Source: Nitrosopumilaceae archaeon
GTDB lineage: Archaea > Thermoproteota > Nitrososphaeria > Nitrososphaerales > Nitrosopumilaceae
Direction of reading: 5' to 3'
Length of the DNA: 64,000 nucleotides
Assembly (NCBI GenBank): GCA_965214835.1
Contig: CBDCCK010000002.1
Span: 2,112,001 to 2,176,000 of the forward strand
Shown: positions 16,157 to 27,947 of the stretch, piece after piece
How positions within the stretch are numbered: the first letter of the stretch is position 1
Layout: every line of letters begins with the position of its first letter
Notes under the pieces: generated by a model
Database searches by the model: none
What the model saw: only the letters and a program-made list of their open reading frames with translations
Told to the model about the DNA's origin: nothing
Program-made: the position numbers and the translations under genes

Positions 16157-16567
16157 CTATCCGTACTTTGCCTTTTGCTCGTCCCAGCACCTTCTGCAGA
16201 GCTGGCCTTCGATCTTCCACTTTGGCTTGGGGTTGTACCGTATCAGCCCCATCTTGCCGCTGCATATTGTGCAAAAGTTCCTTTTCTCGTTGAATCCTGA
16301 CTCTTTTTTATCAAAACACTCCTTGCAGAGTAGCCCATCCATGTCCCACTGCCACCTTGGCTCCCACATGTCTGAGATCTTCTTGGTGGTGCCGCAGACA
16401 ATACAGGGCTGCCTGACCTTGGCCTCGTAGAACTCGTTTGACTTGTCCATGTGGCAGTCCCCGCAGAGCCTTCCATTGATGTTCCACTCCCGCTTGGGCT
16501 TGTGCTTGTGAGTGAGCTCCTTGCTGCATACTGCGCAATATTCCACCTTTTTGCCAAACAGGCCCAT
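16157..16567 (-). CDS. multi-CxxC zinc-finger protein (three repeats)
   Basis: Three C..C ... P..W...G.LC..C modules; start MGLFGKK. Confidence 0.8.
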   Translation of the reverse strand: MGLFGKKVEYCAVCSKELTHKHKPKREWNINGRLCGDCHMDKSNEFYEAKVRQPCIVCGTTKKISDMWEPRWQWDMDGLLCKECFDKKESGFNEKRNFCTICSGKMGLIRYNPKPKWKIEGQLCRRCWDEQKAKYG

Positions 16568-16629
16568 GATATCACTGGCTGGTATTTGATTAAAAATGAT
16601 TCGAGGCAAAAACGGGCGGGATTTGGCGA

Positions 16630-16755
16630 CTAGGATTCGTCAAGAATCTTCTCGATTGCCTGGCTTGCGTTTAGCATGCCGTGCTCCCTTGCAAATTCCT
16701 CGATGATCCTGTACTGCTCGGTTGTAAAGCAGATCGGCATTGAGCGCTTGTCCAT
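16630..16755 (-). CDS. small ribbon-helix-helix (CopG-like) protein, 41 aa, below ORF-track cutoff
   Basis: MDKRSMPICFTTEQYRIIEEFAREHGMLNASQAIEKILDES; TATA-like TTAAATA upstream. Confidence 0.6.
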   Translation of the reverse strand: MDKRSMPICFTTEQYRIIEEFAREHGMLNASQAIEKILDES

Positions 16756-16808
16756 GATGGTAGCAGGGGCTGTTATTTAATATGCCTTCCGATGCTCGTA
16801 GCCTGTTG

Positions 16809-16950
16809 AACACATGATAAAAACGCCCCCGCCGTAGCCAGGGTGATGGATCAACCCCTCGTTATGCATGTGCTTCGCGCACTACCTGTTGAATGGGGAT
16901 ATCCGAGCTGCTGTGTTCCTGTGCTACGCGCACTGATGGATGAATGCAGC
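16809..16950 (+). ncRNA. predicted IS110 bridge RNA (copy 1); transcript ends unknown
   Basis: Two structurally parallel stem/internal-loop/hairpin units; loop 1 matches the target flanks, loop 2 matches the circle junction. Confidence 0.8.
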
Positions 16951-16995
16951 TTCTGATCTGTCAAACCATATCCGAAAGGAGGTGAAAGAAAAGGA

Positions 16996-18073
16996 TTGAG
17001 AAGCATAGGAATAGACATTGGAAAGAGAAAATGCGCAGTGTGCGTCATCGACGCCAAGGGACACGTGCTAGAGGAGGGCTCGTATAACAACACGTACAAG
17101 GAGGCATCAAAGCTTGCTGCACGACTGAAAAAAGAGTACAAAAAGTGCCAGGCCGCGTGCGAGTCAACGGGCAACATGTGGCTAAAGACGTTCAGGGCGT
17201 TTGAGGATCAGCATATCCCCATACTGCTTGCAAACACCCTCAAGATGAAGATAGTATCAGAGACCAGCGCAAAGACCGACCCGATAGACGCAAGGAAGAT
17301 AGCCGACACGCTCAGGGCCGGAATGATACCACGATGCTACGTGGCATCAGCAGAGCTGAGGGATGTCAGGGAGCTGATGAGGTACAGGATACGGATGGTA
17401 CAGGAGAGGACCGCAGTCATAAACGGGCTGCACAGCTTGGCTTGACAAGTACGACATAGCCATAGATGCATCCACGATGTACTCCAAGAAGGCCATACGG
17501 AAGATCTCCGATACCAGGCTGAACATGCCAAACGATGACAGGATACTGGCAAGCTGCACTAGGAGGATTGCATCAGTTACAGAGGAGATAGACCAAGCAG
17601 GGGAGGACATAGGAAGACAGGCAGGATCGAACGAGGATGCCAAGCTGCTGTTGAGCATGACGGGAATAGACACCTTTGCAGCAATGCTGCTGATAGCAGA
17701 GATCGGCGACATAACCAGATTTCCATCGCCGAACCAGCTTGTGTCCTGGGCCGGCATGTGTCCCCGGGTGTACCAGTCGGGGGATCGCGAGTACTACGGC
17801 CACATGAAAAAGGATGCAAACCGCAGGATCAACTGGCTGATGATCCAGATAGTCAACGTCGCCGTACAGCACGACGACAGGATGAAAGAGTTCTACGAGA
17901 GGGTCCGCAAAAGGAACGGCAACAACCACGTCATAGCGATAACGCATGTTGCAAACAAGATGCTCAGGATAATCTGGCACATGCTGACGACAAAGACTGC
18001 GTATTCATCGCGCAATGCTGTCCTGTACGACAAGAAGATCAAGAGGGTGACAGAACTGGCGGGAACGGCATAG
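16996..18073 (+). pseudogene. IS110 DEDD recombinase, 1-bp frameshift at ~17440
   Basis: GIDIGK, CESTG, KTDPIDA (DEDD); GMCPRVYQSG C-terminal domain; SD GGAGGTG. Confidence 0.92.
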
Positions 18074-18254
18074 GATTACCACCTTCCTCCCCCACCCACC
18101 CACCCAATGATCCGCCCGCACCCTGGCAGGTGCGACAGGACTGGCTCGTGCGTATTGCTAGCGTTAGCTATAAAGCACGGCCCGGCCGACTAGGCACGGA
18201 TCAGAAGACGAAAGGAACGTCGCCATGTTACTGGCGGGCGTTTTACCATGGATG

Positions 18255-18640
18255 CATAACTCTGCCTAAAATTTGAAACTTGACCAAAAATCACCCAAAT
18301 TATCAACGGATCCTGACCGAAAAAGTAATGGAATATGAGGATGCCACGTATGGTACTTGACACACACGGACAATGCCAAGTACGGAGGGGGGTAGGCCTA
18401 GTAGTCAAGTACGATCCAGGCTGGGAGAATGATCTCAAGAATGCCAACTGCCACAAGGAGGGTGCCCCGTTCCTGTACGCAGATGGCATGATAATGGTCG
18501 CGGCGGCCCTCAGAACCGCATTCATGATGCCGTACAGGCAGCTGTCAGGCATGATCAGGGAAATGCTAAGGGGCATGGACTCGTCGTGCTATGCCACGAT
18601 ATTTGGGAGGATGCAAAAGCTTGACGTCGACATTGCATAG
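18255..18640 (+). pseudogene. IS5-family element left end and transposase N-terminal remnant
   Basis: KEGAPFLYADG..PYRQLSG..YATIFGRMQKL; end homologous to 13716. Confidence 0.75.
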
Positions 18641-18699
18641 TCAACACATAAAAAAAACGGATTGTTTTGACAACTATTTTTGATCCAAAGATCTAAGAC

Positions 18700-19100
18700 T
18701 AGGGGAGCCATACATATGTGCATCAAAGCGCAAGCAGAACGAGTTCAAGGAGGCAGCGCAAAAGCTGATCAGGGAAAATACGGCACAAGGGTATACGGTA
18801 CTGGCAGAAGACGAGTCCTCCGTGCAGAAGACCTCGAACAGCCCCAAGCGTGGGTGGACAAAGCGCGGCATGAGCGTCACGGTGCCCTCGTCCCTGTCAC
18901 GGCCGCGCCGGTACATGTTTGGCGTACTGTCAGCTAGTAGACTTTATGCGTAATCGGTTCAGATCTAGGATTATTAGGAACAAATTCATCTCATTCAGGT
19001 CGATTACGCATAAAGTCTAGTGTATTCTACTTTATGTTCTATGACAAGACCAGCACCGACAGCTTTTGCGACTTTTTTGGCAAATGCACACAAGGTCTGA
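18700..19100 (+). pseudogene. IS630-family transposase fragment interrupted by a MITE
   Basis: TVLAEDES..RGW..YMFGVLSAS|VFYFMFYDKT..F; frame is restored when the MITE plus one AGT is removed. Confidence 0.7.
18939..19018. mobile_element. 80-bp MITE (family D)
   Basis: Perfect 18-bp TIR AGACTTTATGCGTAATCG, 3-bp TSD AGT; solo ends at 21018 and 25610-25625. Confidence 0.88.
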
Positions 19101-23935: not shown

Positions 23936-24121
23936 AATCTAAGCACATGCATGTATGTGATATACTTAGCTATATACTCGGTTTTCCCATCTATGTTAAA
24001 ACGCCCGGGCCCTTTAGCGGTGGCAAGCTGTGTCTCTCTGATCCACGCCTAGTTTGATATGGGCCGCCTTATGGCTTACGCTGGGTACAGGGGTCTGTTC
24101 CCCGTGTGGGAATGGTGCGCA

Positions 24122-25253
24122 TTACTTTGCTGTCTTCTTCCCAGCCTCGGATGGCGGCTCGGATGCTGCTGCAGTAGTAACAGCGGCAGTAGCAGCAGCC
24201 TCTGCCCTGTCCATCTTGAGGCCGTACGTCCTGGGATCGTGTCCGGAGTATGGCGTCTTTGTCACGAGCATGGACCAGATGATCCTGATCATCTTGGTTG
24301 CCACGTACGTCCTGGCCACCATGGACCTTGCGCTGCTCCTCTTCTTGGATCCTGCATGGATCCTTCCCATCCTCTCGTCGTATATGGCAGCCGTCCGCGC
24401 AGCCTGAAGCATCGCCCGGTTGCACCTGTGGTTGGATGTCTTTCTCATCTTGCCGCAGTACTCCCTGTCGCCGGACTGGTGGACGGTCGGACACATGCCG
24501 AACCACGCAACAAGCTTGCCCGGGGTCTTGAATCTGCCAGTATCTCCGATCTCGGAGACCAGCAGCATGGCCGCGAGTCGATCCCCGGAATGCTCATCGG
24601 GATCCTCGCATCCTCGCTGGCGCCGGCCTGTGCGGCTATCTTCGTCTCGATGTCTGCAATCTCCTCCGTGGGCTGCCTGACCCTTCTGGTATGCGCGCCA
24701 AGAACCGCCCCGTCGTTGGGATCATCAGGTGCCATGTCTGTCAGCTGCCTGAGTCCCTTGTCGGAGTACGCGTGTGACGAGTCGATCCTCTCGTAATACC
24801 TGTCCGGGAGGCCGTGGATCCGGTTGATCACGGCCGTCCTAGCCTGCACGGGGCCGATCCTGCAGCGCATCAGCTCCATGACGCTCCAGAGTCCGGGCGG
24901 TGCCACGTAGCACTTGGGAACCATTCCGGCCCTCAGGGCGTTTGTGAGCCTTCTTGCGTCGATTGGATCAGTCTTTACGTCAATGTCCGAGATTATCCGC
25001 ATCCTGTAGGTGTTGGCAAGCTTGACGGGTATTCCTGCGGACTAGAATGCCTCGTAGGTCTTGAGCCACATGTTGCCTGCGGACTCGCAGACGGCCTGGC
25101 AGTTCCTTCCGTAATTGAGCCTTGTCTTCCTGGCAAACAGGCCCGCCCTCCTTGGAGGTGTTCTCGTATGCCGTCTCTTCTTGGATCCTCTTTTTGTCGT
25201 CCATAATGCACGCTATGCGTTTTCTCTTTCCAATGTCTATTCCTATGCTGCAT
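24122..25253 (-). pseudogene. IS110 recombinase, multiple frameshifts/stops
   Basis: SIGIDIGK, KTDPIDA, GMCPTVHQSGD distributed over several frames. Confidence 0.9.
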
Positions 25254-25291
25254 TACATCTTTTCTCGTCTTCCTTTTTTTGTGGTTCAGAG

Positions 25292-25437
25292 GCTGCACAC
25301 GTCCATCAGCACGCCGTGGTGCACGAACACTGCAGCTCGGAATTACCGCATTCAGAAGTCAGCGCGCGGGGTGCATGGGAAGACAGCGGTTGATCCACGT
25401 CACCACTGCTACGGGCCCGGGCGTTTTAACCCGTGTT
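25292..25437 (-). ncRNA. predicted IS110 bridge RNA (copy 2) with a different target guide
   Basis: Same scaffold as copy 1; guides GTCTTCCCA and ACTTCTG match own flanks and the host MITE TIR. Confidence 0.75.
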
Positions 25438-27578: not shown

Positions 27579-27718
27579 AGTACATGATAAAAACACCCCA
27601 CTGTAGTCAGGGTGCTGGATCAGCCCCCACCATGCACGTGCTTCGCGCACTATCTGTTGAATGGGGCAGTCAGAGCTGCTGTGTTACTGTGCTTTACGTA
27701 CTGGTAGATGACTGCAGC
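27579..27718 (+). ncRNA. predicted bridge RNA of the mini-IS110
   Basis: Both loops and closing stems retained; TCTGTTG and TAGATG match its own flank and junction. Confidence 0.65.
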
Positions 27719-27947
27719 TTTTGGTACATCAAGACTAGGCGGAAAGAAACCGTCTGCGATGACTCGCCTCCTGTCCCACCACCCATCCAATGATCTGGGA
27801 GGATATGACATGACCGCACTGGGACAAGGCAGGTGCTATTGCATCGTGCAGCCAGCTAGCTGTAAAGTGGGTCACGATCAAGTAGGCATGGATCAGAGGA
27901 AACTAGGAGCATCGTCGTTTCTGCGATGGGTGTTTTTAACATAGATG
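27579..27947 (+). mobile_element. non-autonomous mini-IS110 (both non-coding ends, no recombinase)
   Basis: Collinear with the 5' and 3' non-coding regions of copy 1; TG core at both ends; sub-terminal IR ATGATAAAAACACCC / GGGTGTTTTTAACAT. Confidence 0.9.

Follow-up and report, generated by a model that had tools for sequence, protein, structure and literature searches.

Introduction

Bridge RNAs and seekRNAs underlie a new class of programmable recombinases, and work on these systems has so far dealt almost entirely with bacterial, IS621-like representatives. The titles, abstracts and passages of the literature consulted here show that bridge and seek RNAs, the covariation of their guides with targets, natural reprogramming, archaeal IS110 recombinases and model-based surveys are already in print; 662 archaeal IS110 recombinases were reported in one such source (10.1101/2024.06.21.599552), and 32,190 predicted bridge RNAs with 86 models in a 2026 preprint (10.64898/2026.10.21.760802). 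According to passages of Siddiquee et al. (PMC11187229), elements of the IS1111 group have subterminal inverted repeats and usually a downstream non-coding region (NCR), and the exceptions named there among IS1111 relatives are ISMtsp17, with an upstream NCR, and ISHvo10 and ISAcp5, with NCRs on both sides. IS4321 and IS5075, which belong to the IS1111 family, target the terminal repeats of Tn21 transposons (PMC11208160, citing its reference 10), and a passage of the same paper attributes the divergence of IS110 and IS1111 to translocation of the RNA between the element ends.

We describe here an element in the window, by which we mean the whole 64,000-nucleotide stretch of DNA that was analysed. 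Judging from sequence, it is very probably an IS110-family element of an ammonia-oxidising archaeon with a bridge (seek) RNA that would guide its recombinase. The titles, abstracts and passages searched describe neither this thaumarchaeal family nor the set of traits that it unites; survey supplements may list the family.

The element and its copies in the genome

The source genome (3.22 Mb, 2 contigs) carries the element described here (copy 1) on the + strand of the window at 16809..18252. It is 1444 bp long and owns one of the two TG dinucleotides that flank it. Its borders, 16809 and 18252, are the points at which the copies cease to resemble each other, the conserved target excepted. On the left, the target half CCTGT and the core TG (16802..16808, +) lie within the terminal repeat of another, IS5-like element; on the right, the core TG and the target half CATAAC (18253..18260, +) make up the flank TGCATAAC.

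Eight copies in the genome, that of the window included, are ~98% identical, and others were found at 92%, 86% and 83-89% identity, in addition to a family of 65% identity and many isolated 5′ ends. A member of the 65% family with decayed ORFs occupies 23990..25437 on the - strand of the window, with the guides UCUUCCCA and ACUUCUG and the flanks TGGGAAAA and ACTTTTG. Similarity between copies continues into the flanks, which means that the element inserts into a sequence that is itself repeated: six of the eight near-identical copies have CCTGTTG as their left flank, the remaining two deviate from it by one base, and TGCATAAC directly follows 10 of the 14 right ends examined, these 10 being all of the main-type ends.

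A search of the assembly for the circle junction found none, and comparison of contigs from four DNA runs with 16300-18800 revealed no joint with an empty site or a circle. In this interval the contigs were short and broken at repeat borders, with other left flanks as loose ends, and the sole joint listed from them (18076-18173, one contig) was unrelated. A 12-nt inverted repeat of 92% complementarity was also noted between 16950-16961, at the 3′ edge of the bridge-RNA region, and 18196-18207, ~50 nt inside the right end.

Predicted structure of the bridge RNA

The first ~155 nt of copy 1 most likely encode a bridge (seek) RNA on the recombinase strand, its RNA nature and its transcription being deduced from the DNA. 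A consensus fold was obtained with RNAalifold from 16 copies of the own genome (alignment A1), and a covariance model (R1) was built from the A1 consensus after removal of five predicted guide-guide pairs. The predicted fold is in all likelihood a three-way junction, in which a 7-bp closing helix (UGGAUCA at 16847..16853 with UGAUCUG at 16954..16960, both +; taken from the RNAalifold consensus and tested on alignments A2 and A4) encloses a target-binding arm (16855..16898, +) and a donor-binding arm (16905..16953, +). Both arms are built alike, with an outer stem that leads through an internal loop to an inner hairpin of 4 bp. The target arm comprises the outer stem CCCC/GGGG, a 5′ guide (16861-16868), the inner hairpin (16870-16882), a 3′ guide (16885-16891) and AAU, and the donor arm comprises the outer stem GAGCUGC/GCAGC.UC, a 5′ guide (16912-16919), the inner hairpin (16921-16933) and a 3′ guide (16936-16942). 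A possible 5′ stem-loop (16825..16844, +) is the weakest helix, with 64-75% of cells paired in relatives, and may precede the transcription start.

The structure was examined in A2, which holds 27 sequences of relatives, none of them used for the consensus, and in A4, which holds 66 distinct sequences from named public records. In A2, 91.7% of cells were paired and 24 of the 32 pairs had changed on both sides; in A4 these values were 94.8% and 25 of 32, and the counts lean towards the model, since both alignments were fitted to it, the consensus itself having come from other sequences. The covariation score in A2 was 0.409, compared with at most 0.099 when partners were slid. The closing helix showed compensatory changes at 7/7 pairs, with 96.2% of cells paired in A4, and each inner hairpin was compensated at 4/4 pairs in A4. 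An earlier reading of the DNA without database searches (the sequence-only reading) had proposed a covariance model from the genomic copies as a check, and the structure so modelled holds in the relatives, where none of 500 A2 shuffles attained the observed value on any measure.

G-U cells exceeded A-C cells (58:13 and 145:29), which favours the +, recombinase-sense strand as the folding strand. Folding of the single sequence was uninformative (z = -1.28 for the + strand and -1.95 for the - strand), and the structural support is therefore covariation. An Rfam search of the region returned only chance-level matches (E >=5) and no bridge-RNA family. A kink-turn RNA resembling C/D-box sRNAs, prompted by GUGAUGG ... 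CUGA, was considered and rejected, as the candidate boxes lie in a regular Watson-Crick helix with 7/7 pairs compensated.

The sequence-only reading had also remarked that the two loops share almost one inner hairpin, namely GTGC-TTCGC-GCAC in the target arm and GTGC-TACGC-GCAC in the donor arm, and we found that this extends to relatives: in 15 of 46 distinct combinations the target and donor arms of one RNA have the same inner stem, compared with 3.0 expected, with stem types that vary by lineage (GTGC, GGGC, GCAC and CGGC; A4 columns 96-136 and 206-230; L081-L160). This twinning suggests concerted evolution, via gene conversion or a protein contact surface shared by both arms.

Target guides and flanking sequences

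The 5′ target guide GUUAUGCA (16861..16868, +) is complementary to the top strand of the core and right flank, and the 3′ target guide CCUGUUG (16885..16891, +) equals the top strand of the left flank and core, so that it pairs with the bottom strand. Both matches had been pointed out from the sequence of copy 1, and both are exact: as DNA, the 5′ guide GTTATGCA is the reverse complement of the right flank TGCATAAC (18253-18260), and CCTGTTG (16885-16891) is identical to the left flank (16802-16808).

Guide/flank covariation, the absence of which had been named as refuting the sequence-only reading, was examined by permutation in the own genome and its relatives, with one row per distinct guide and the core positions left out. 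Loop segments were taken by model column and flanks by model position 1, with no hand correction, and right ends were located by the 3′ donor guide (<=1 mismatch) together with a subterminal-repeat score. On the left side, 193 of 270 positions matched across 54 distinct 3′ guides (null mean 75.7, maximum 112), and on the right side 167 of 234 positions matched across 39 distinct 5′ guides (null mean 72.0, maximum 113); 0/50,000 permutations reached the observed value on either side, and relatives alone gave the same outcome. Poor matches occurred in 14 of the 54 distinct guides on the left (<=2/5) and in 6 of the 39 on the right (<=2/6), and these rows include cases in which the model misplaces the first bases of the element. 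The right flank does not match the guide at C2:1519219, C2:1301361 and C2:2665851. The TG core proposed earlier is borne out by 90 of 107 left flanks that end in TG and 59 of 65 right flanks that start with it.

The genome holds three guide sets, which correspond to three different predicted targets. Set 1 is GUUAUGCA/CCUGUUG, with the flanks CCTGTTG and TGCATAAC; set 2, in the copy at C2:514647, is CAUUUUCA/GUAGUUG (as DNA, CATTTTCA/GTAGTTG), with the flanks GTAGTTG and TGAAAATG; and set 3, in the 65% family, is UCUUCCCA/ACUUCUG (as DNA, TCTTCCCA/ACTTCTG), its copy at C2:685688 having the flanks ACTTCTG and TGGGAAGA(C). Copies with different loop segments thus lie in different flanks, and this is natural retargeting within one genome.

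Three loci of one public genome (L075, L087 and L088) begin with TTCATTTG in place of AACACATG, the 8 nt with which the element normally starts. TTCATTTG is identical to the 3′ target guide of the copy in question, a pattern that exchange at the second TG inside the left end would produce.

Target sites at the termini of other mobile elements

Uninterrupted predicted targets are far more frequent in the genome than uniform chance predicts: for the three targets, exact occurrences numbered 4, 23 and 57, compared with 0.1, 0.1 and 0.02 expected, and occurrences with <=1 mismatch numbered 30, 40 and 106, compared with 3.8, 3.8 and 1.0 expected. From context, each of the three targets is the terminus of another repeated mobile element. 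Copy 1 itself lies ~80 bp ahead of a DDE_Tnp_1_5 (IS5-like) transposase fragment. The target-bearing elements are this IS5-like element (window 18335-18640, +), a MITE-like palindromic unit of ~90 bp (C2:3110706-3110779), an element of ~1.36 kb (C2:2694605-2695968) and a short, highly abundant repeat, of which 106 near-exact termini were counted (C2:2803597-2803813).

Donor guides and element ends

The donor segments lie where the sequence-only reading had placed them, with TGTGTTCC at 16912-16919 and ATGGATG at 16936-16942. The match proposed there also holds: ATGGATG equals the right IS end plus TG, and the reverse complement of TGTGTTCC agrees with TG+AACACA at 7/8 positions. The first 6 nt of the 5′ donor guide, as reverse complement, matched the left IS end at 127 of 192 positions (null 107.5; 1/50,000 permutations), in a test with low diversity of sequences; the core and the base beside it are usually unpaired in this guide.

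Right ends located independently via the target guide showed the element-end form in 12 of 28 listed loci, and in all 12 the 3′ donor guide equals the 5 nt preceding the right end (ATAGG, ATAGA or ACAGA). With ATGGA of the window family, four right-end variants match their own 3′ donor guide. All 18 distinct pairs taken together gave 31/90 matches compared with 25.2 (182/50,000 permutations), with many chance matches, and because this test is weak we rely on the 12 of 28 loci with the element-end form. Inspection by eye showed no consistent pattern of a donor-side handshake guide.

The element ends also carry subterminal inverted repeats, CATGATAAAAACGCCCCCGCC on the left (16813..16833, +), with an A-rich TATA-like stretch inside, and GGCGGGCGTTTTACCATG on the right (18233..18250, +). 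A repeat search missed them because of indels, and gapped local alignment recovered them (17 matching positions between 16813-33 and 18233-50, score 28; 1/5000 shuffles). Left- and right-end repeats covary among relatives.

TATA-like A/T-rich stretches occur within the repeats at 16817-16823 and 18240-18246. In a joined right-end/left-end junction, the right-end copy would sit ~26 nt upstream of left-end position ~15, and the left-end copy lies ~26 nt upstream of the closing helix. By analogy, these stretches are a possible archaeal counterpart of the IS621 junction promoter.

The recombinase and its frameshift

The recombinase is encoded on the + strand in two halves. The N-terminal half (16996..17445) carries the RuvC-like DEDD domain (PF01548, DEDD_Tnp_IS110, E = 1e-29), and the C-terminal half, in the +1 frame (17446..18073), carries the Tnp domain with the motif GLCPRVYQSG (PF02371, E = 6e-25); the listed ORF of the latter spans 17477-18073, and its frame is open from the frameshift site on. 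The NCBIfam model NF033542, 'IS110 family RNA-guided transposase', scored 234 bits against a cutoff of 140, and the solved bridge recombinases ISCro4 (E = 4e-9) and IS621 (E = 9e-9) were matched with DEDD and SG positions aligned. By these protein matches, the element is assigned to the IS110 family in the broad ISfinder sense.

The frameshift noticed earlier at ~17440 is real: compared with the intact copy, the window copy has one extra nucleotide near 17439, which leads to a stop codon. This insertion is common to 10 copies, namely the eight near-identical ones, C2:1519219 and C2:1302397, which fall into three diverged lineages, and the genome contains only one intact ORF of the window copy's group (378 aa, C2:513383-514516). 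The frameshift site (17437-17446) reads GCU-UGA-C, where skipping of the U restores the frame with the length unchanged. Between the main family and C2:1519219, both of which are frameshifted, the N-terminal half gave a dN/dS of 0.31 and the C-terminal half one of 0.25, which indicates that both halves have been kept under purifying selection. Programmed frameshifting, a functional split protein and supply in trans are each possible readings of the split recombinase.

Relatives, distribution and mini-elements

Within the same taxonomic family, R1 matched in 22 of the 101 genomes, one of the 22 (G077) being unpublished, and in 11 of the 27 genera. When contigs of one genome per species were searched with a protein profile (A3) made from ten intact members of the element family, 127 relatives emerged. 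Of the best 80 of these 127, 78 are titled Nitrosopumilus, Cenarchaeum, Nitrosopumilaceae, Nitrososphaerales, Nitrosotalea, Nitrosopolaris or Thaumarchaeota; the earlier label 'thaumarchaeal' fits this distribution, almost all of the best 80 belonging to Nitrosopumilaceae or Nitrososphaerales. At 74 of the same 80 loci, an R1 match immediately precedes the recombinase ORF in the same orientation. Of the 27 R1 loci from relatives, 10 have an intact ORF, 354-400 aa in length.

The other two of the best 80 (L114 and L120) lie on short contigs from MAGs titled Kaiserbacteria and Gemmatimonadales, which could reflect a binning error or transfer to bacteria.

In the plasmid collection, where tblastn returned only generic 'IS110 family' names, the best match was an element on a plasmid of Haloarcula sp. 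GH36 (L161, 253076-255438; 34.6% identity). Read by eye, this element has a perfect 15-bp subterminal repeat, the right end ATAGG|TG and an upstream two-arm RNA, and in this manual reading the RNA segments match its own flanks in the same guide order as in the window element. R1 gave no significant match to it (best E = 0.33). The Haloarcula element hints that the layout is widespread in archaea.

The genome also contains mini-elements that consist of the bridge-RNA region and the right end without the recombinase gene. One of 367 bp lies in the window (27579..27945, +), others of ~367 bp at C2:2955986(-) and C2:3124520(-), and partial ones at C2:639991, C2:10110 and C2:655667(-). They are colinear, each has different target guides, and their donor guide and right end are ATAGA, not ATGGA. 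These mini-elements have no ORF at all and retain the whole RNA structure.

Proposed mechanism and alternative explanations

In the mechanism that we propose, the recombinase would bind the bridge RNA, and the element ends would be joined in a circular intermediate. In the donor arm, the partner of the 5′ segment would be the outermost 5-6 nt of the left IS end, and that of the 3′ segment the right IS end's last 5 nt together with the core TG. Guided by this RNA, the DEDD/Ser recombinase would then bring the joined ends into register with the target and exchange strands at TG; in this genome, the targets are the ends of other mobile elements. With its frameshifted recombinase the window copy is probably not autonomous, and it probably depends either on a frameshifting event or on an enzyme provided in trans.

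All of this evidence comes from DNA, and the guides might act as DNA: pairing with the target would then fall to the left end, whose top strand would fold while single-stranded or in a cruciform, much as subterminal guide sequences act in IS200/IS605 elements, with no RNA involved. Covariation and the G-T excess are compatible with this, as they show only that the + strand folds. We nevertheless consider it very improbable, since the protein belongs to a family in which RNA use has been shown (the IS621 and ISCro4 structures; the NCBIfam 'RNA-guided transposase' model), passages of PMC11208160 and PMC11187229 describe double-stranded circles as the mobile form of IS110/IS1111 elements, and the structured region directly 5′ of the ORF on the sense strand at 74 of 80 loci is as expected of a transcript. 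The same position immediately 5′ of the ORF would also suit a structured leader that regulates the recombinase, for which the 12-nt inverted repeat between the RNA 3′ edge and the right end could be a regulatory feature, and the flank matches would then be by-products of insertion into element-like sequences. Such a leader is less credible still: the guides vary from lineage to lineage at exactly the points where the flanks vary, left as well as right and on opposite strands, the stems have been conserved or show compensating changes, and the mini-elements without an ORF keep the full structure with diversified guides.

A bridge RNA that guides recombination is accordingly the reading that we prefer, and it may be asked whether copy 1 still takes part in it. 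The RNA design could be genuine and copy 1 with its near-identical sisters be dead relics, which the insertion shared by ten copies and the single intact 378-aa ORF of the group would lead one to expect. We regard this as possible and as the less likely case. The eight ~98% copies stand in different flanks and are all frameshifted, so their multiplication postdates the insertion; dN/dS between two lineages that carry it speaks for selection on both halves; and the intact copy, which has identical donor guides and ends, could supply the recombinase in trans.

A wider reading, offered tentatively, joins these observations: the family may be a separate, largely archaeal bridge-recombinase lineage between IS110 and IS1111, with the guide order and subterminal repeats of IS1111 and an upstream RNA; its RNA would be a closed three-way junction of two twin modules that evolve in concert; its mini-elements would carry individually retargeted RNAs without a recombinase; and its top subfamily would need a +1 frameshift at GCU-UGA-C or work as two polypeptides. 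The principle has already been established, and given the survey numbers of the 2026 preprint (10.64898/2026.10.21.760802) the family extends it and is no surprise. It offers many natural retargeting events (at least 54 distinct 3′ and at least 39 distinct 5′ guides with cognate sites) and a compact RNA with both ends locked in a single helix. By inserting into the mobile-element termini of ammonia-oxidising archaea, it represents parasitism on other mobile DNA, and its mini-elements are self-guided non-autonomous derivatives, with their own bridge RNA and no recombinase gene. The combination of traits may show how the IS110 and IS1111 groups diverged.

Comparison with known systems

The comparison is with IS621, IS1111 and their relatives as portrayed in passages of the cited papers. 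As in IS621, a DEDD and Ser recombinase is accompanied by an RNA that is encoded in the non-coding end, 5′ of the gene, with the target loop ahead of the donor loop, and each of the two pseudo-symmetric loops has two guide segments that address opposite strands and overlap at the 2-nt core (PMC11208160, PMC11208158). The AA after the 3′ target guide matches the first bases of the left IS end, like the handshake guide described for IS621. Unlike IS621 as described, the element has the core TG (CT in IS621), a closing helix that gives a three-way junction, subterminal repeats of ~17 nt (2-3 bp in IS621) and nearly identical inner hairpins, and its protein matches at E ~1e-8.

The sequence-only reading had called the layout IS621-type, which stands as regards a DEDD recombinase adjoining a two-loop RNA, the guides and the 2-nt core, but not as regards the strand order of the guides. 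In each loop the complement of the top strand comes first, which is the reverse of IS621 and the order of IS1111 seekRNAs in the passages compared (PMC11208160, PMC11187229), and the IS621 order, scored as a control, gave no signal (88 vs 83.3 and 44 vs 45.1). The reversed order is equivalent to both DNA partners being turned by 180 degrees and involves no new chemistry, the genes being inverted relative to the asymmetric recombination site.

The element shares with IS1111 (ISEc11), as characterized in passages of PMC11187229, the guide order, subterminal inverted repeats (7-17 bp in IS1111), the motif GL-P----SG, targets that are mobile-element ends or repeats, and natural reprogramming. In contrast to the IS1111 elements described there, its RNA lies upstream of the recombinase gene and not downstream, its guides lie in simple twin internal loops, and the proteins of its family have 354-400 aa, compared with the 330-350 aa quoted for IS1111. 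A long upstream NCR in an IS1111-like element recalls ISMtsp17 and ISHvo10/ISAcp5, which are compared here by description, the passages of PMC11187229 leaving their RNAs undescribed; the window element has a further NCR of 180 nt downstream. IS4321/IS5075 likewise insert at a fixed position within the terminal inverted repeat of another mobile element, as far as the passage on them goes, whereas the host here is an archaeon and the targets are an IS5-like element and MITE-like repeats. Judged by traits, namely subterminal repeats, the GL-P----SG motif, the IS1111 guide order and the upstream RNA, the family would be best described either as IS1111-like, its bridge RNA lying upstream, or as intermediate between IS110 and IS1111.
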